Source of the DNA: Promethearchaeota archaeon
GTDB taxonomy: Archaea > Asgardarchaeota > Lokiarchaeia > Sigyniarchaeales > SOKP01
Assembly: GCA_011364925.1 (NCBI GenBank)
Contig: RDOA01000008.1
Coordinates: 40,744-104,743, forward strand
Direction: 5' to 3'
Length of the DNA stretch: 64,000 nt
In this document: piece by piece, positions 2 to 52,858 of the stretch
Numbering within the stretch: position 1 is the stretch's first letter
How the letters are laid out: each line of letters begins with the position of its first letter
Translations under genes and position numbers: made by a program
Notes under the pieces: model-generated
What the model was told of the DNA's origin: nothing
What the model saw: the letters and a program-made list of their open reading frames with translations, nothing else
Database searches by the model: none

Positions 2-361
2 TACGATCAAGAATACAACTGAAGTTAGGCTAATTAAAGATCCAATTCTGGCTATTAAATACTGTTTTTTATCTTTTTTAAAATACGATGAGAATATTAG
101 AGCGAAGGGTATAAAGGAAAAGCTTAGAATTAATGCTGTAATTGTAAAAATTGTAAATGATACGAAATTTGGAGCCCCAGATAGTGCAAATACGCGCCCT
201 AAATCGCTAAAGAAGTTTCCCCAGAAATAATATCCTGGACTTAAAGGATTTACCAAAGTGCCTCCCGCGTAAAAAAACATCGCTATCGCCGTAAAAACTA
301 TATATTGTGTGGGTCCAAAAATTATAGATACCGACGCAAATAGTTTCCAATTTTTAATCAT
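2..361 (-). CDS. Membrane protein, DUF998-like (partial; C-terminus runs off window start)
   Basis: Manual translation from ATG at 361: MIKNWKLFASVSIIFGPTQYIVFTAIAMFFYAGGT...PGYYFWGNFFSDLGR; open to window edge; not in ORF track. Confidence 0.65.
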   Translation of the reverse strand, partial: MIKNWKLFASVSIIFGPTQYIVFTAIAMFFYAGGTLVNPLSPGYYFWGNFFSDLGRVFALSGAPNFVSFTIFTITALILSFSFIPFALIFSSYFKKDKKQYLIARIGSLISLTSVVFLIV

Positions 362-517
362 CTTCAATAAAACCACCATAAAGTTATTTGCATAATAATT
401 TTAAATTAATATTTTTAAAGCTCGAAAATAATACATCGTGCTATAACTATCCTTAGAATTAAAAAAATCAAAAAAAAGGTTAAAATCAACTCTAACTCAT
501 GTCGTTAAATCCGTATC

Positions 518-1336
518 CTACGCGTATTTAGGTTTTGAAATGAAACCTATAAATATGAGTAAATTGACGCCAATATCGATTAATTCAGCAATAATTCCAA
601 AAGATAGGTTTGCGTTAATTAAGATCGTTCGGACTAAATTTGAGATCAGAAAACATATAAACGCTAATCCAATAATTAATCCATGTGCTTGGGTAAGCCG
701 TTTGTTTTTATACATAAACAAAAACATGAACGCAATCGCAATATAGCTTAAAATCGTGATGAATGGAAACACGAGGTTAAGAAAGTTTAATGTGGGCGCT
801 AATACGATAATCAAAGCTGTTACTATAACAAACCCAAGCATAATCCTCAATCTTAGCTTGCTAAACTGCTTCTTATTCATCTCTTTATCCTTATTCATGT
901 TAATGTAGACAAGAACTGCTTCTAAACCGATATATAATATCGGAATTAAGTTTACGATGATTACGAAAAACCTGATTTTTGTTAAAAGCAAAACAAATTC
1001 AGTACTAAAGGTTCCAGATATAATTACTAAATTGTAAAAGATATCATAGACTTTTGCGCAAGTAAGTATTCCAAAAAAGGCTCCGAATAAAAAATAAGCA
1101 TCTGATAGATATATTGCTTCTTGCTTAAACCATTTTCGAAAAAGAACGAACGACAATACTCCTAATATCAAGATTCTCACGAGTATTGCCACTAAGCCTA
1201 TCCACAGACCTTCAATGCCAAAAAACGCTGCAACTAAGCTAGACCAATACAAAGAGAACAATACGCTAAAGAAAATCATTAAAACAAGAATTAAGGCAAA
1301 AATGCTGCAAATAAATTTTTTTCGTTTACTCTCCAT
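518..1336 (-). CDS. Multi-pass membrane protein, unknown function
   Basis: 272 aa, about 7-8 hydrophobic segments. Confidence 0.75.
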   Translation of the reverse strand: MESKRKKFICSIFALILVLMIFFSVLFSLYWSSLVAAFFGIEGLWIGLVAILVRILILGVLSFVLFRKWFKQEAIYLSDAYFLFGAFFGILTCAKVYDIFYNLVIISGTFSTEFVLLLTKIRFFVIIVNLIPILYIGLEAVLVYINMNKDKEMNKKQFSKLRLRIMLGFVIVTALIIVLAPTLNFLNLVFPFITILSYIAIAFMFLFMYKNKRLTQAHGLIIGLAFICFLISNLVRTILINANLSFGIIAELIDIGVNLLIFIGFISKPKYA

Positions 1337-1540
1337 TATTAAAAACCTTTTAACAACGATTATGTGTCTATTTTTTTTTCTAAAATATTTTAACTATTCT
1401 AAACATAATTTTGTAAATAGCTTTTAAAAACCCGAATTTTTTTCCATTGGCTTAATTTTAAGAAGATGAATTTCTATTATTTAAGAAAGAGTTTAGCTAA
1501 ACATAAGATTATTTAGGGAAATATCTGCGTAGAATAAGGG

Positions 1541-2920
1541 TTGGGTATGGTTTATTTTAAAATTAATGGATTAGGATATAACTGCGGTTATATCGAAAGT
1601 AAATGCCCAAAAGAAAAGACTTCTTGTATTGAATGCATTAAAGATCGTTTAAGAGATCTTGGATTTGAATTTGATTCGACAATAGAAATCTTTAAACTCG
1701 ATTCTATCGAAAAACAGTTAGAGTTAGAAAGAGATACCATTTGGCAAAAATTTTTGGATGTATTAAACATTAAGCACATTCTAATAATGGACAAGGAATC
1801 AGGATTAACCGTGATAAACTACACAGTATCAGGAGTAGATGTTGATGTAGAGCTTCTGAGTGGGTTTATACAAGCTAATATAACATTTTCTGAATCAGGA
1901 GAAGCGTCTAAGCAAAACCTCGTATCCTCTTACGAAAATCTTTTTTACGAATTCCAATATAAAAGTTTTAATATTCTGCTTAAAGATGGGAATCATGTTC
2001 GAATTTGCTTAATACTCGACCATAAGGCGTCTAATAAACTTCGAAATCACACATTTCGATTTGTAGAGGAATTTGAAGAGAAATTTGAAGAGGAACTTAT
2101 TACTTTACGAAACACTGGTTCTATTAATTTCAATAACATGATAGATGATATTGTGGATAGTTTTAACATAAATCTTACATTTCCAATGACTTTAGTACAC
2201 TCAATTCCGCCATATGAGTTAGAAAAAGTAAAAAGAAGCATACTGCAGAAAGCGATATTTAATTTAGCAAAAGAAATGCTTGCGGTAAAACCGTTCTTCT
2301 TTATATACAACATGCTACAGCGTATTAAGAAAATTGTAAATATCGATGATGAAGTTATCCTCTTTGAGATTCACCAACTCTTAGAAAGACAAATCATTAC
2401 TCCAACACCTATAGAAGCGATTGCAGATACCATAGAATCTGGTCAGTTGGCTGATAAGAAGAAAGAAACTAAAACTAGTTCAATATCATCTATTATTATA
2501 AGTAAAACGGATACTGATGAACTAAAAAGCAAATTAGACACAATGGACAAATTTTCAGCACAGAAGTTAATTAAGGAATTGATGCGAAAAGCTAAAGCAG
2601 CAGAAAAAGAATCAACTTATCAAGTAACTCTTAACGAATACAATAAAGCTTTATTTATAGCTAAGGACTTTAAACTCAAAGATGAGATTAGCAAGATTAA
2701 CCAAAAAATCTTTAATTTAGAGCACAAATCTAAAAATATAGAATTAGACTTTAATATTGAAAAAGCAGAAAATGCTGAAAAATATGGCGATTTTATCAAC
2801 AGCATCAATTATTATCAAAAAGCTTTAGAAATCCTTGACGAATTCATAGTTTATAATATTATCGACCCTAGAATAAAGAAGTTTAAGAAAAAAATCGCAC
2901 AACTTCGAGAAGAGATCTGA
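1541..2920 (+). CDS. Longin-like domain protein with N-terminal Cys cluster and C-terminal TPR/MIT-like helices
   Basis: HILIMDKESGLTVINY...ELLSGFIQANITFS longin-like pattern; four Cys near N-terminus; helical repeats (AEKYGDFINSINYYQKAL). Confidence 0.65.
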   Translation: MGMVYFKINGLGYNCGYIESKCPKEKTSCIECIKDRLRDLGFEFDSTIEIFKLDSIEKQLELERDTIWQKFLDVLNIKHILIMDKESGLTVINYTVSGVDVDVELLSGFIQANITFSESGEASKQNLVSSYENLFYEFQYKSFNILLKDGNHVRICLILDHKASNKLRNHTFRFVEEFEEKFEEELITLRNTGSINFNNMIDDIVDSFNINLTFPMTLVHSIPPYELEKVKRSILQKAIFNLAKEMLAVKPFFFIYNMLQRIKKIVNIDDEVILFEIHQLLERQIITPTPIEAIADTIESGQLADKKKETKTSSISSIIISKTDTDELKSKLDTMDKFSAQKLIKELMRKAKAAEKESTYQVTLNEYNKALFIAKDFKLKDEISKINQKIFNLEHKSKNIELDFNIEKAENAEKYGDFINSINYYQKALEILDEFIVYNIIDPRIKKFKKKIAQLREEI

Positions 2921-5871: not shown

Positions 5872-6753
5872 ATGGCTCTTCAAAAAATGACTGCCAAAAA
5901 AATCATCGAGAAAAAGAGAAAAGGAGAAAAAATCGTAACCATTACTTCTTATGACTATTCGTTTGCTAAAATTGTCGACGATTGTGGGATTGACTTAATT
6001 CTCGTAGGTGACTCCCTTTCCATGGTTGTTCTTGGATACAAAAATACATTAGCAGTGACCATGGACGAAATGATTCACCACACTAAAGCAGTGACAAGAG
6101 GCGTTTCAAATGCGATGGTAGTTGGAGATATGCCCTTTTTGTCCTATAAAATTGGAGTCAAAAAAGCAGTCCAAAACGCGGGAAGATTTATTCAAGAAGG
6201 AGGAGCAGAAGCGGTAAAAGTTGAGGGTGGAGCTAAAATCTGTCCGACTATAAAAGCAATGATAGATGCAGATATACAAGTAATGGGCCATATTGGTCTA
6301 ACTCCTCAAGCAATATATGAATTTGGAGGTTTCTTAGTACAAGGAAAGACCATCGAAGGAGCGAAAACTTTAATTATTGATGCTAAGAAGTTGGAAAAAA
6401 CGGGAGTGTTTTCAATAGTACTTGAGAGTATACCGTGGCAAATTGCAAAATTAATAACTCAATCGGTAGATATTCCTACCATTGGTATAGGGGCTGGTTC
6501 GTATTGTGATGGACAAATATTAGTTATTAACGATATGTTGGGGCTTTTTACAGACTTCAAACCAAAATTTCTAAAATATTTTGGAGATATTGGTAATTCC
6601 GTCAAAATGGCCGTTAACGACTACCAAAACGAGGTAAAAAGTGGTCTCTATCCTGATATAGAACACTCCTATGAATTCCCAAAAGAAGATTTGAATGAGA
6701 TCGAAGAATGGTTTGAAAACACTGATCTCGAAAATGAAGTAGGCGAAAAGTAG
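5872..6753 (+). CDS. panB: 3-methyl-2-oxobutanoate hydroxymethyltransferase (ATG at 5872 preferred over TTG at 5794)
   Basis: [37 protein letters not shown]. Confidence 0.96.
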
Positions 6754-6977
6754 GGTAAATTAATCGTAAGAATCTAACAATATAGGAGTATAGTAAATAG
6801 TAAATTATTTCAATTTTGTTTGTTATCACCAAACGCATGAGATGTATCTAGAGAATAAGATTTTAATTATCCAAAAGTATAATTAAATAAATTTTTATTA
6901 ATAATTATAACATAAGAACTTTGTTTGAAGATTTATTTAGCAAATTAAAGATCGAATAAATTAACGGAAGATTTAAA

Positions 6978-8720
6978 ATGGCCGAAGAATACGATTTTTT
7001 GTTTAAATCGATTGTGGTAGGTGATGGCGGAGTTGGTAAAACAGCACTTACGCTCCGTTTCTCAAAAGGTTTTTTCACTGAAGATTACAAAATGACAATC
7101 GGTGTTGATTTCCACGTAAAGACAATTTCAATTGATACATCTGAAGGGCCTATCAAGTGTAAGCTCCAACTCTGGGATACTGGGGGTCAAGAACGATTTA
7201 GCTCGATAAGACCAATGTACTATAGAGGATCGTTAGGAACTGTACTCGTTTTTGATCTCACAAATTCAGAAAGTTTTGGACATTTACCACAATGGATACA
7301 AGAAGTCAGAGCTAACATAAAAGCTGATATTCCGGTGCTTCTTGTCGGAAATAAAAGCGATCTAGTTGACCAGAGAGCCGTCTCGGCGGAGGATGTAAGT
7401 AAATTTACAAGAGACTTTAACCTATATTATATGGAAACTTCGGCTAAAACGGGTGATGGAGTTGGAGATTGTTTTTACATTCTTGCATGCTTAATGATAG
7501 GACAGGGTGTTCCTGAACAATTAATTGCAAACTCAATCGTTTTTGCTCCAGGACAATTTGCTACACCAGCCGTTCAAATTTCTTCGCAACCAATAGTTAC
7601 TAAGGAACCTCAAAGCAATTATATCGCACCATCTGTTCCAGGACATATCCAAAACTTGAAAGAGGAGCCTGAAATAGAGTTTGAGGCACCACCAGTTCCT
7701 GAACCGAAGTTATCAAAAGTTCGAGGTCCAACGTCTCCTTTCATTTCCGATTCAGAGATTGAATTTGAGGCTCCACCTGTTCCTGAACCACCACTAAAAG
7801 CGAAACCGCAACCTACTCCCGAAATCTCTCTACCTGAACCAACTGAAATAGAGTTTAAAACTCCTGATGAAATTATGATCAAAGAAGCTATAAAATCCGA
7901 ACTTGATACATTAACAAGCGGTGACAATGTCTATAAACCTAAGACTGCACCTTTTACACCCAATGCTCCAGAACCTACAGCACCTCCTAAAGAATTTCAG
8001 AGTTCTTATTCAGAAGAACCAATCGAGAGATCTCCTATCCACACACCATTTCGCGTTATTAAAAGAGAAGAGTCTCCTAAACCTCAACCAGCTTCAATGA
8101 CGTTTGAACCTAGCCCTTCACCTCAACCAGAATCAACTGAATCTTTAGAATCAACCTCTGATTCGTTGATCGACTATATGCCTCAAACAATTTTAACGAA
8201 AAAAGAGAAGAAAAAGCAAGCAAAGGAAAAGAAAAAACAAGAAAAAGAGAAAGCAAAAATAGAAAAAGAGAAGAAAATGCTCGAAGAAAGGGAGAAACAA
8301 GAAGAATTGATCAAAGAAATGAAAAAATCTAAAAAATCTAAAAAGGAAAAACCCATCGTAACCCAAACATCAGAACCAACGCAAGCACCTACTATAAGTC
8401 GACCAGAAACTGGTATGAATTCCTTATTCCAAACCCTCACCCAAAAATCTGAAGTCTCCCCACCAGATCAGAGTGTCCCATTTATACCTTTTTCGGGAAC
8501 AAGCAAAACTAAAGAAGAAGGGACATCTAAATTAAGAATCATCCCAAATGTAGCAGACATTGATGCAAACTCTAACGGTTTCACAGCTTTTACTTCGTCT
8601 CAATCCAATCCAGATGAAGAACCAAAAGCTAAAACTAAAGATCTCTTAATTTGCGAGCAGTGTGGTTCAATCTTATCTGCTGATTATGCATATTGTAACA
8701 AATGTGGTAATAAGTTATAG
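6978..8720 (+). CDS. Rab-like GTPase with long Pro-rich/charged extension and C-terminal zinc ribbon
   Basis: GDGGVGKT, IGVDF, KLQLWDTGGQERF, YYRG, GNKSD, ETSAK; C-terminal CEQC...CNKC. Confidence 0.9.
   Translation: MAEEYDFLFKSIVVGDGGVGKTALTLRFSKGFFTEDYKMTIGVDFHVKTISIDTSEGPIKCKLQLWDTGGQERFSSIRPMYYRGSLGTVLVFDLTNSESFGHLPQWIQEVRANIKADIPVLLVGNKSDLVDQRAVSAEDVSKFTRDFNLYYMETSAKTGDGVGDCFYILACLMIGQGVPEQLIANSIVFAPGQFATPAVQISSQPIVTKEPQSNYIAPSVPGHIQNLKEEPEIEFEAPPVPEPKLSKVRGPTSPFISDSEIEFEAPPVPEPPLKAKPQPTPEISLPEPTEIEFKTPDEIMIKEAIKSELDTLTSGDNVYKPKTAPFTPNAPEPTAPPKEFQSSYSEEPIERSPIHTPFRVIKREESPKPQPASMTFEPSPSPQPESTESLESTSDSLIDYMPQTILTKKEKKKQAKEKKKQEKEKAKIEKEKKMLEEREKQEELIKEMKKSKKSKKEKPIVTQTSEPTQAPTISRPETGMNSLFQTLTQKSEVSPPDQSVPFIPFSGTSKTKEEGTSKLRIIPNVADIDANSNGFTAFTSSQSNPDEEPKAKTKDLLICEQCGSILSADYAYCNKCGNKL
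7671..7790 (+). repeat. Intragenic repeat encoding EIEFEAPPVPEP twice (third partial EIEFKTP near 7845)
   Basis: 7671-7706 and 7755-7790 encode the identical 12-aa peptide with synonymous differences. Confidence 0.85.
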
Positions 8721-49934: not shown

Positions 49935-50378
49935 ATGGCAGAAGAATTCGCAAATTTCATGCAAGAAACAAAAAAAGCTCCACTTGAAGAAAAATTAAAC
50001 GCTTTTGGAGATATCGTTGAAAGAATGATGTCTGTTATTCTGAGGATTCCAGATTTAGTAGATCAGTCTCTAGCAAGTGTTGGACAAAGAATTTCAACTT
50101 TAGAGTCACGATTAACCACAATTAATAGTGAAGTGTCAGCTCTTAGAACAAGAGGTTCTGGAACAGCTCCAGTTATCGCTGCACCTTCTGCTCCTACGAG
50201 TGCTCCTCCGCCCACATCGGGTCCACCTGGAGGTCCCCCCGGTGGCCCACCTGGAGGCCCACCACCTCCGCCAGGAGGTCCTGGTGCAGCACGCCCAGCG
50301 AGTCCTGTAAGCTTAAGAGGTGCTATAATGGGCGAGCTAAAACAATTATTTTCAAAAAGAGCTCAATCAGGACAATAA
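49935..50378 (+). CDS. Coiled-coil + polyproline + C-terminal amphipathic helix protein (WASH/WAVE/VASP-like layout)
   Basis: RISTLESRLTTINSEVSAL coil; GPPGGPPGGPPGGPPPPPGGP; LRGAIMGELKQLFSKR; GGAG upstream. Confidence 0.7.
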   Translation: MAEEFANFMQETKKAPLEEKLNAFGDIVERMMSVILRIPDLVDQSLASVGQRISTLESRLTTINSEVSALRTRGSGTAPVIAAPSAPTSAPPPTSGPPGGPPGGPPGGPPPPPGGPGAARPASPVSLRGAIMGELKQLFSKRAQSGQ

Positions 50379-50503: not shown

Positions 50504-52246
50504 TTGGTTAATTCGGTGCCGAACGCATTAAATCGTGAAGTTGAATTCTCTAAAGTTAGAATTGCTCACGATTTTCAGAAGCAAATATTAGAAATCCCTT
50601 CTTTTATAAGAGTTCTCAATAATTATTATTATAATAAAACTGTTGTCCAATCAAAATTAAAACCTTTAGCATTAAGGAAATTCAAAGGAGGGAGGAAACC
50701 TTTAGAGACTAATAAAAATTGGCTTTATCTTCTTCCTACGCCTTTAAATGTCTTAAGTAGGGATTTACTTCATAAAAAAGATGCTTTTCAATTCCCAGAT
50801 AGCATTTTGTTATTTGAAGCTTGGATGAACTTAGGATTGGGTGCGTTATACCCTAGATTAGCGCTACACTATAAATTCCCAGGAATATTAAAGAATGAAA
50901 AAATAAGGCATGTTTTTCAATTCACATTTTCTACCTCAAGAGGATTTGGATTTCCAATCTATTTTGGACCACAATTTTATGAGTATTTTTTGACGATTGG
51001 TAAAATTCTTGAACCCTTATTTAAGTGGAGTCATACCATTTGTCATAGAGCTAATCAGGCCATATTTCTGGTCGGTAAGAGATATGGGATTAAAAGGCAT
51101 CATCCTGGGGAATTTGAATCAGTTATTATTTCAGAATATGAAAATAATATGTTTAAAGGGATTGACACTCTCCTTCATGGATATTTCACTCAAGACCCAA
51201 AAAAACTGGGAACATACTCAAATTTAGACGAGATTCTTGATAATACGATGTTTTCTTACTCTATTGGTGATCACGCTATGAGTATAGAAAGAAAAGTTAA
51301 GAATCAGACAATTACTATTCCTCTGATTACTCACGATTATATTGTTAACAAGTATAGTGTCAATTTTTATGAGTATCTAAAAGGTTTAATTTCCATCAAG
51401 AATCTTCTTATTAAAAAGATTTTGCTCTATAAAACGCAGAGAAAAGCATACATTAACAAATTAAAAAGAATCGATAAAATTAAATTTAGATTAAGCCAAT
51501 CTAAAAAAAAATCCATTCCCAATTTAAGATTGTTTAAACGATTTTCTAAAATTCAAGAATCTTCGCTTCACATTAAGCTTATGGAACAATTATTGGAAAT
51601 ATTATGGACTTCACCGTTGTACACTCACGCAATTCACCACAGTATAAATGAAGAAATCACTTCTCAAAAATCTACAGACAACGAAACCCTTACCAATTTT
51701 GAAAAAGATTCAATGGATTCAATATTTTTATTATATATAAAATTTTTCGAACAAAATAACGATTTTACATTTAAGGAAGTTGAAGTTTTTGACGAATTAA
51801 GGAAGGCTAGGGATCTAATAGGAACTATGTGGTTATCCTTTAAAGAAAAGCATTTTAAATTCGGTATTAAAAAAATAAATGAACTTTCACTTTTATCCAT
51901 TACCAGGCAAGATTATAATAAATTTGTAAACGATATGATAAATAACCTCATACCTATATTTTCAATTTACGAAATCTTTAATAGATCGCTTTCAGAATCC
52001 GTTTATCCAGAATCTATCCCTCAAACCAAACGAATAGGAGCTTATATCGCAAGTTTTTTAACATCAAGGTTCAATCCTTTTGGTGTAAATTTAATGAACC
52101 TCTTCAACAGGCTTGCCTTTTATAATTGGAGCTACTTCATTATAAAAAAGAAGCTTAATCGAACCAACTTTTTCAAATCAATTTTTAAGCTCCCTATATG
52201 GAAGTATATCCCTCCCAACATTGAAAAGAAAATTCTATCTTGTTAA
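50504..52246 (+). CDS. Hypothetical protein, 580 aa
   Basis: Long ORF; no recognised motif. Confidence 0.7.
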   Translation: MVNSVPNALNREVEFSKVRIAHDFQKQILEIPSFIRVLNNYYYNKTVVQSKLKPLALRKFKGGRKPLETNKNWLYLLPTPLNVLSRDLLHKKDAFQFPDSILLFEAWMNLGLGALYPRLALHYKFPGILKNEKIRHVFQFTFSTSRGFGFPIYFGPQFYEYFLTIGKILEPLFKWSHTICHRANQAIFLVGKRYGIKRHHPGEFESVIISEYENNMFKGIDTLLHGYFTQDPKKLGTYSNLDEILDNTMFSYSIGDHAMSIERKVKNQTITIPLITHDYIVNKYSVNFYEYLKGLISIKNLLIKKILLYKTQRKAYINKLKRIDKIKFRLSQSKKKSIPNLRLFKRFSKIQESSLHIKLMEQLLEILWTSPLYTHAIHHSINEEITSQKSTDNETLTNFEKDSMDSIFLLYIKFFEQNNDFTFKEVEVFDELRKARDLIGTMWLSFKEKHFKFGIKKINELSLLSITRQDYNKFVNDMINNLIPIFSIYEIFNRSLSESVYPESIPQTKRIGAYIASFLTSRFNPFGVNLMNLFNRLAFYNWSYFIIKKKLNRTNFFKSIFKLPIWKYIPPNIEKKILSC

Positions 52247-52276: not shown

Positions 52277-52858
52277 CTAAAATTCCAGAAATCCAGGATC
52301 ATCAAAAATGTCGTCAATTTTCTTTTCTTTCTTCATATCGCTATCATCGTGTTCTGTAAACAATGACTCGTCATCGGTTTTTATCCCCTTCTCCAATTCT
52401 AATGTATCTAATTGAAGTAATGCGTTCTTTTCTTTTCTTTTATATTCTTCAGCTTTTGTTTTCCATCTATTTACTTCCTCGAGATCGACATTGTTCTCGT
52501 CCTCTAAGGCTTCAGCAGCTTTAGCTTTACAAAGATCAGTTAAAATAGAGTAACATAAAACTAATTCCCCCCACTCGTTCTTCTGTTTTAACTTTGCTAT
52601 TCTTTTCTCTAGTCGCTGAAGTTCTTGATCAGCATAAAAGATGTCTATAAAATCTCCAAATGCATCAACAGGTTCCGAAATAGAATTAACAAGCACTTCC
52701 TTAGTTAGCCCACAATGGCCACACTTCACCGTAGCTATTGCACTTTTCCTAATATTTTCCACTTTTACGGATTTCTCTCCGCAGTTAGGGCATGTGAATA
52801 TCTTCGGAACTTTTTTCACTCTTTTATAGGTTTGCTGCTTTCTTTTTCGTCTTCCCAT
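52277..52858 (-). CDS. elf1: Transcription elongation factor Elf1 with long C-terminal extension
   Basis: MGRRKRK...FTCPNCG...CGHCG...EPVDAFGDFID. Confidence 0.88.
   Translation of the reverse strand: MGRRKRKQQTYKRVKKVPKIFTCPNCGEKSVKVENIRKSAIATVKCGHCGLTKEVLVNSISEPVDAFGDFIDIFYADQELQRLEKRIAKLKQKNEWGELVLCYSILTDLCKAKAAEALEDENNVDLEEVNRWKTKAEEYKRKEKNALLQLDTLELEKGIKTDDESLFTEHDDSDMKKEKKIDDIFDDPGFLEF

Follow-up and report, generated by a model that had tools for sequence, protein, structure and literature searches.

Homology of a 147-Residue Asgard Archaeal Protein to the Tail of an Arf/Rag-Type GTPase, Judged from Sequence Profiles, and the Possible Targets of Its Conserved C-Terminal Helix

MinD and FtsA carry C-terminal, membrane-targeting amphipathic helices on flexible linkers, and tethered C-terminal peptides of such a layout are also known from FtsZ and from the P1/P2 tails of the ribosomal stalk. 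In VASP, the FAB segment (peptide 259 to 278 of the human protein, GGGGLMEEMNAMLARRRK, sequence from PMC10340426) and an oligomerizing coil suffice together for bundling (PMC10340426). According to PMC13716822, the known actin regulators of Asgard archaea are limited to profilins and gelsolins. How the small GTPases of these archaea reach membranes or the cytoskeleton is a largely open question, which bears on the protein family described here. No description of this family was found in the literature searched.

The gene under study is located on contig RDOA01000008.1 of a lokiarchaeial genome (GCA_011364925.1), in a stretch of 64,000 nucleotides that was analyzed as a whole and is called the window. 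A first-pass annotation had described the product as a miniature WASH/WAVE/VASP-like protein, composed of a coiled coil, a GPPPPP motif, and a basic amphipathic helix. The gene, its parts, and its neighbors are listed by position in the window.

49935 to 50378, plus strand: whole gene, an ORF starting with ATG and encoding 147 aa, stop codon within the coordinates (ORF list, translation)
49938 to 49976, plus strand: N-terminal acidic-Phe helix, residues 2 to 14, AEEFxxF[LM] (AlphaFold2 model, conservation)
49983 to 50069, plus strand: conserved docking helix, residues 17 to 45, ...LEEKLNAFGDIVE..M..L.IPDLVDQS, with the most invariant columns
50070 to 50153, plus strand: heptad coiled coil, residues 46 to 73 (sequence pattern, pLDDT above 90)
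50154 to 50312, plus strand: disordered Ala/Ser/Pro/Gly linker, residues 74 to 126 (pLDDT below 50)
50220 to 50285, plus strand: (GPPG)3-GPPPPP-GGPG tract, residues 96 to 117 (translation)
50223 to 50263: 12-nt tandem repeat CCACCTGGAGGC, 3.4 copies, encoding PPGG repeats (Tandem Repeats Finder)
50313 to 50363, plus strand: C-terminal basic amphipathic helix, residues 127 to 143, LRGAIMGELKQLFSKRA
49163 to 49795, plus strand: upstream neighbor, an all-helical protein of 210 aa, conserved in the Loki synteny and without a Pfam family
50504 to 52246, plus strand: orphan of 580 aa directly downstream, without a Pfam match
52277 to 52858, minus strand: Elf1-type zinc-ribbon protein, extended at the C terminus by about 115 aa that are charged and coiled

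The segments quoted in the first-pass annotation are present in the translated ORF: the coil segment ...RISTLESRLTTINSEVSAL comprises residues 52 to 70, the Gly/Pro tract residues 96 to 117, and the terminal segment RGAIMGELKQLFSKR residues 128 to 142. The proposed layout, an oligomer-type coil followed by a Pro-rich spacer and a basic amphipathic end helix, also agreed with the sequence and with an AlphaFold2 model. This model, based on an alignment of 41 sequences, contained helices at residues 2 to 14, 17 to 73, and 127 to 145 and disorder at residues 74 to 126, with pLDDT values above 90 for residues 21 to 70 and below 50 in the linker. Read off the sequence, the a and d positions of the coil are occupied by L46, V49, I53, L56, L60, I63, V67, and L70. 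The protein contains no Trp and ends with ...KRAQSGQ, so that an acidic Trp tail is missing, as had been stated.

The ORF is well beyond chance, as indicated by its homologs and by invariant residues at both ends. A GGAG sequence is located 8 nt 5' of the ATG. A TATA-like, AT-rich stretch at about positions 49872 to 49886, approximately 50 nt before the ATG, and an oligo-T run immediately after the stop codon of the preceding gene make it plausible that the gene is a transcription unit of its own, transcribed separately from the upstream gene. The linker-coding DNA has a GC content of 63 to 74%, that of the surroundings being about 30%. The tandem repeat in this GC-rich DNA fits the variation of the linker length among the homologs, of which it is likely the source by way of slippage. 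Two spurious ORFs, 50063 to 50215 on the minus strand and 50128 to 50310 on the plus strand, are also created by the repeat.

A word-indexed search yielded at least 200 homologs of the 147-residue protein at an E value of ≤0.01. The E values of the best 120 of them reached down to 1e-74, and the named ones among these 120 were "hypothetical protein" entries from Asgard archaea. Only unnamed Asgard clusters were retrieved from a protein atlas, the cluster with the Thor-type members carrying the label Thorarchaeota. No Pfam family was above the cutoff for the protein or for 41 relatives; the commonest weak matches in the 41 members were generic coiled-coil families, with Baculo_PEP_C in 32 of them. 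A profile of the head was run in all six frames against 300 genomes of the phylum and matched 63 of the 68 genomes of one Loki-type family and all 7 of a second. Weaker matches to ORFs of the same size came from several other families of the phylum. Twelve loci from outside the Loki-type families, with Thor-type and Odinarchaeia loci among them, were retrieved, and all possessed the same three-part architecture. The family ranges over Lokiarchaeia, Thor-type genomes, and Odinarchaeia. Nearly all Lokiarchaeia possess it, as a single copy.

Within the Lokiarchaeia, the N terminus (AEEFxxF..KAPLEEKLNAFGDIVE..M..L.IPDLVDQSL) and the C terminus (RPASPVSLRGAIMGELKQLFAKR) are highly conserved, and the coil and the linker are variable. 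E4, F5, and F8 of the acidic-Phe helix are invariant there. Across the whole family, conservation is limited to the N-terminal acidic-Phe helix, with F5 being nearly invariant, and to the C-terminal E-L-K-x-L-[F/L], with E134, L135, K136, and L138 as the only invariant residues. Because the sole residues that are invariant throughout the family are positioned in the end helix, with the core motif R-x-x-h-h-x-E-L-K-x-L-[FL]-x-[KR]-[KR], this helix should be the functional core. The linker differs in length and composition from member to member. Thor-type linkers are rich in Ala, Ser, and Gly, with few prolines and without GPPPPP, which indicates that GPPPPP is a trait of the Lokiarchaeia and not of the family.

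To find the module in other proteins, 1.84 billion representatives were searched exhaustively with the profile at a threshold of E ≤ 0.001. This yielded 184 proteins, most of them free-standing with 100 to 190 residues. Several proteins of 390 to 460 residues contained an HhH-like N-terminal extension and an Arf/Gtr1-RagA-type G domain, followed by the whole module. The genome under study encodes such a GTPase paralog of 415 aa (contig C95, positions 5882 to 7126; locus L012, positions 304 to 1551, plus strand), which begins with an HhH-like extension of about 135 aa and possesses the coil, the linker, and an ELKQLF end helix, ending in ...RSKVLDELKQLFEKKRKLNL. In an hhalign comparison, the family profile matched the GTPase tail with a probability of 91% and an E value of 1e-6. 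The match extended from the acidic-Phe helix to the coil and included the docking helix. In the paralog, the G domain is followed by the helix EPEFSKYIKE, with which the acidic-Phe helix aligned. The end motif R-x-x-h-h-x-E-L-K-x-L-F-x-K-K/R is also common to both, and a motif profile made from both families had exactly two carriers in the own genome, the gene of the 147-residue protein and this GTPase, with E values of 1.3e-9 and 1.2e-8. All parts of the tail module were found: an acidic-Phe helix, a docking helix, a coil, a linker, and an R..hh.ELK.LF.K[KR] end helix. Judged from these profile comparisons, the tail of the approximately 416-residue Arf/Rag-type GTPase is homologous to the 147-residue protein.

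The GTPase family comprised 665 proteins at an E value of ≤1e-10, annotated as ADP-ribosylation factor-like. Full-length matches were present in all genomes of the two Loki-type families (68 of 68 and 7 of 7), many Loki-type genomes having several matches each to the query, and the family was not detected in Thor-type or Odin genomes at E ≤ 1e-20. Most Loki GTPases have a short linker and no polyproline, and the linker of the paralog in this genome is rich in Ala, Ser, and Gly and without GPPPPP. The GPPPPP on which the first-pass annotation had relied is real in the tract at residues 96 to 117 but no feature of the family, being absent from the Thor-type members and from the genome's own GTPase paralog.

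Parts of the module also occur in other contexts. The head alone was found in rare metagenomic proteins with 1 or 2 cluster members each. In the protein P0511, with 560 residues, the head is located between two gelsolin-homology domains, with a Ras-type GTPase in front of the first and a zinc finger behind the second. From its 90%-identity cluster, a shorter protein carrying the head together with the second gelsolin domain matched the Lokiarchaeal gelsolin 7whg (2DGel) with an E value of 9e-11. In P0511, P0272 (locus L035), P0296, and P0512, the head adjoins one or two gelsolin-homology domains, behind which a zinc finger is located, and some of these four proteins possess in addition the N-terminal Ras-type GTPase. 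The gelsolin fusions and the 147-residue protein have an identical stretch of about 20 residues, which suggests that the fusions may result from recent domain shuffling. The head was not found in the gelsolin-type protein of this genome (contig C90). Rare metagenomic proteins with leucine-rich repeats (LRR) or a Zn ribbon also contain the head, so that its docking helix is present in gelsolin, Ras, LRR, and Zn-ribbon fusions. The cassette of Pro-rich region and end helix occurs likewise behind unrelated N termini. Among the 150 representatives listed, 60 carried the helix motif, located not more than 20 aa from the C terminus in 57 of the 60 and preceded by PPP in 35; the helix was internal in the remaining three.

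The genomic neighborhood was compared between the classes. In Lokiarchaeia, the order is pelota, a radical SAM protein, a helical protein of about 207 to 210 aa, the gene of the 147-residue protein, an optional orphan of about 578 to 580 aa, Elf1 on the other strand, and an operon of eight genes, with the Elf1-type gene as a conserved adjoining gene. Language-model look-alikes of the upstream 210-aa protein included BAR/FAM92/Bin3 clusters with scores of 0.77 to 0.81, and this BAR/FAM92-type likeness of the 207/210-aa protein is a lead only. Of three related Loki neighborhoods, two contained the orphan and one did not, which indicates that it has no fixed association with the gene. The neighbors in the Thor-type and Odin loci are entirely unlike those in the Loki loci. 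No operon that would indicate a function across classes and no membrane-related gene linked across classes were found in the Loki, Thor, and Odin loci compared. Genes for small Ras-like GTPases are located one to three genes away from the family gene in Odin and Thor loci. The actin genes and the single profilin-like gene found are on contigs other than that of the gene under study.

The genome encodes two Lokiactin paralogs of 381 aa each (contig C16, 85284 to 86396, and contig C32, 45692 to 46798) and three further, more divergent actin-family proteins. The distance between the profilin-like gene (C16, 63065 to 63301) and the first actin gene, C16:85284-86396, is about 22 kb. At positions 46632 to 46787 of the window, on the plus strand between the GNAT and pelota genes, an ORF of 51 aa contains ...LGEELKEEIKRGVTLQKV..., a WH2-like pattern, and ORFs of 50 to 51 aa are present at the equivalent site of two related loci. 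The Pfam WH2 model did not match this ORF either in the genome-wide search at E ≤ 10.

The best reading of the family is that of a variant of the tethered-helix adaptor. The tail module, widespread in Asgard archaea, has three parts, and the gene encodes a version of it that stands alone. Its head, composed of the acidic-Phe helix, the docking helix, and about four coil heptads, may oligomerize, dock a partner, or both. The disordered Pro/Gly/Ala/Ser spacer, about 50 residues long and of variable length, would give reach to the C-terminal basic amphipathic helix, which would bind the target with its core E-L-K-x-L-F and the subsequent Lys or Arg residues. Identification of this target would therefore provide a function for two conserved Asgard families at once, that of the 147-residue protein and that of the GTPase.

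Among the possible targets, we put the membrane first, albeit tentatively and with less than even confidence. The end helix would lie along the membrane on its cytoplasmic side, like the hypervariable-region anchor of a small GTPase or the targeting helix of MinD and FtsA, so that an oligomeric head would be leashed near the membrane and show its conserved docking surface there. The helix is at the extreme C terminus in 57 of its 60 carriers, follows a flexible linker, is amphipathic, and has a net positive charge. The weak BAR/FAM92-type likeness of the conserved upstream protein would fit as well, as a lead only. Its HeliQuest-type values (muH 0.33 to 0.54, H 0.2 to 0.5, net charge +1 to +3, D 0.7 to 1.5) are within the range for possible to likely lipid binding. 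In the alignment of the GTPase family, the extension of about 135 aa beside the core takes the place of the usual N-terminal amphipathic helix of Arf, which leaves the end helix as the only candidate for a membrane anchor in these GTPases. The absence of polyproline from the Thor-type members and from the GTPase is as expected for a mere spacer. If the membrane is the target, the module would be a way for Asgard GTPases to anchor without lipid modification.

On the other hand, the invariant Glu and Lys that flank the hydrophobic face, and the invariant Gly and Ala in Lokiarchaeia, point to protein recognition instead, since generic lipid binding does not need such residues. Of the three carriers with an internal helix, moreover, one already has transmembrane segments. 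The AlphaFold2 models of the 147-residue protein and of the GTPase paralog gave no information on contacts of the helix. The same invariant residues may alternatively mark a short linear motif for another protein, for instance, an MIT-like domain, a regulator of the Arf/Rag-type GTPase, or its G domain, in which case the 147-residue protein would be a competitor or an adaptor without a GTPase domain of its own in the GTPase pathway. The invariant Glu and Lys, the Arg six residues upstream, and the small residues are typical of the recognition of a peptide in a groove, and the module is indeed common to a GTPase. The AlphaFold2 model of the GTPase paralog, however, left the end helix undocked on the G domain or elsewhere, with pLDDT values of 33 to 55 in the tail, and the 147-residue family is present in Thor-type and Odin genomes, where the GTPase family was not detected at the threshold given above. 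The small GTPase genes near the family gene in the Odin and Thor loci would agree with this pathway, but such a proximity means little because small GTPases are very numerous in Asgard genomes. An ESCRT-III MIM1 tail was rejected as the identity of the end helix: the pattern (D/E)xxLxxRLxxL(K/R) is absent and the helix is net basic, in contrast to the acidic, differing MIM1-like tail ...EDEIDKLRKELEGS of the Snf7-family ESCRT-III protein encoded in the same genome. Both the missing pattern and the opposite charge speak against an MIT-like partner. Altogether, recognition of another protein by the helix appears to us rather unlikely, albeit well within consideration.

The remaining candidate target is actin, as proposed by the first-pass annotation. 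Homology to WASH, WAVE, WH2, or VASP is not supported by the profile comparisons. The WH2 model (PF02205) had no match in the whole genome in six frames at E ≤ 10, WH1/EVH1 was found neither in the 147-residue protein nor in the genome at E ≤ 1, an SH3 model returned nothing usable from the whole genome, and no LKKV-type motif follows the end helix, as read off the sequence. VASP_tetra was neither among the matches listed for the protein nor among the 25 most-matched families of the 41 members. A VCA arrangement as in WASP, WAVE, or WASH, with WH2, a central helix, and an acidic Trp tail, is not present in the protein. The coil, for which a likeness to WAVE and WASH had been proposed, gave matches at noise level to the partner coils Brick1 and CCDC53, and neither a WAVE homology domain nor a WASH head was recognized. 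When compared with the sequences of the PDB, the head profile matched only coiled coils of a generic kind, most of them trimeric and with polar layers, Brick1 being far down at an E value of 0.22. CCDC53 matched 3 of the 41 members at E ≥ 0.018, and its model had no match anywhere in the genome. This likeness is thus one of generic coiled coils. The profiles of the end helix retrieved nothing relevant and no solved relative from the PDB. Since these profile and HMM comparisons found no match, membership of the protein in the WH2, WASP/WAVE/WASH, or Ena/VASP families is not demonstrable.

The likeness of the C terminus to VASP, in contrast, stood in part. A position-specific scoring matrix (PSSM) of the end helix of the family was made with weighting by clade and compared with a background of 1.06 million sequence windows from the ORFs of the own genome. 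The human VASP FAB peptide scored 21.9 bits in the correct register, and only 2 of the 1.06 million windows reached this value or more (about 2 in 10^6), one of them presumably being the 147-residue protein itself with the genome-wide maximum of 41.3 bits. The Thor-type end helices, which read GGGGGLMGELKSLL[AT]ARR[RK]K, come near to the FAB sequence. The FAB score depended on them, however, decreasing to 11 bits (13-residue core, 14.5 bits) when the Thor-type sequences were left out of the matrix. In addition, the Lys that is invariant in the family is Asn in VASP FAB, and the likeness is inflated because both helices are basic, amphipathic, and preceded by a Gly-rich linker; any such helix would match much of the FAB pattern. 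The resemblance is rare but unproven and may be regarded as suggestive, and no match to the VASP, WASH, or WAVE families accompanies it.

If this resemblance reflects function, the 147-residue protein could be a miniature Ena/VASP-like actin factor, a coil oligomer with flexible arms ending in a helix of the FAB or WASP C-helix type that binds F-actin or G-actin, which bundles or tethers Lokiactin filaments. The tract might then hand over profilin-actin in Lokiarchaeia, and the GTPase, having the same tail, would be coupled to actin without an intermediary. The combination of FAB and an oligomerizing coil, sufficient for bundling by VASP, would be provided, PPP precedes the helix in more than half of its carriers, and in rare proteins with a Ras GTPase at the N terminus, the head is flanked by two gelsolin-homology domains. 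According to PMC13716822, an ARF GTPase, not named there, was enriched by coimmunoprecipitation with Lokiactin in L. ossiferum, and BAR proteins were detected. The gelsolin fusions are few, nevertheless, and contain the head only, without the helix. No linkage to actin, profilin, or gelsolin genes was seen in any class, WH2 and EVH1 are missing, and the polyproline is not maintained in the Thor-type members or in this genome's GTPase paralog. Loki profilins, moreover, do not bind polyproline according to a report cited in PMC8410842. An actin-related function of this kind appears for these reasons rather unlikely, albeit likewise within consideration. In a broader version, the E-L-K-x-L-F helix would serve throughout the Asgard archaea as a motif of the VASP FAB type for binding actin filaments, the 147-residue protein would be a minimal oligomeric bundler or elongation aid for Lokiactin, and the GTPase would be an actin-tethered switch; this version is to be viewed with slightly more doubt. 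In the context of the GTPase tail, a role as membrane anchor or a GTPase-related role is no less likely than one related to actin. Should actin be the target, the family would be the first archaeal counterpart of the filament-binding element of the Ena/VASP type, and if the FAB-type reading is true, the Ena/VASP logic of an oligomer, a proline-rich region, and an actin-binding helix would predate the eukaryotes.

Compared with known systems, the 147-residue protein resembles the EVH2 part of Ena/VASP proteins (GAB, FAB, and tetramerizing coil) with the preceding Pro-rich region by its putative oligomerization coil, its Pro-rich stretch, and its basic amphipathic helix. The order is permuted, however, with the coil coming first. 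The coil is a plain N-terminal heptad coil and not the C-terminal tetramerization domain of VASP. EVH1 and a GAB/WH2 region with an LKKV-type motif are missing, the polyproline is not conserved across the family, and a sequence match at the family level does not exist. The likeness to a miniature VASP consists, as far as the sequence tells, of the layout and one short motif only. Brick1/HSPC300 of the WAVE complex and CCDC53 of the WASH complex are likewise small proteins with an N-terminal coil of comparable length, and CCDC53 has in addition a Pro-rich middle part like the 147-residue protein. Their matches, however, were at noise level, and Baculo_PEP_C matched far more members.

The tail of the Arf/Rag-type GTPase, on the other hand, shares the homologous acidic-Phe helix, docking helix, and coil as well as the same end motif. 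The 147-residue protein differs from the GTPase by the absence of the HhH-like head and of the G domain, by a longer, polyproline-rich linker, and by the wider distribution of its family, which includes Thor-type and Odin genomes, in which the GTPase was not found with the query used. With the helices of MinD and FtsA and with the hypervariable region and anchor of Ras, Rho, and Rab proteins, the end helix has in common its position at the extreme C terminus behind a flexible linker, its hydrophobic face, and the flanking Lys and Arg residues, and it is joined to a small GTPase in the paralog, as are the Ras, Rho, and Rab anchors. It differs from these anchors by an invariant Glu and a strict conservation of its sequence, lipid binding being putative. 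New findings are the homology of the whole module to the tail of an Arf/Rag-type GTPase, the result of the FAB comparison with the PSSM, and the range of the family into Thor-type and Odin genomes.
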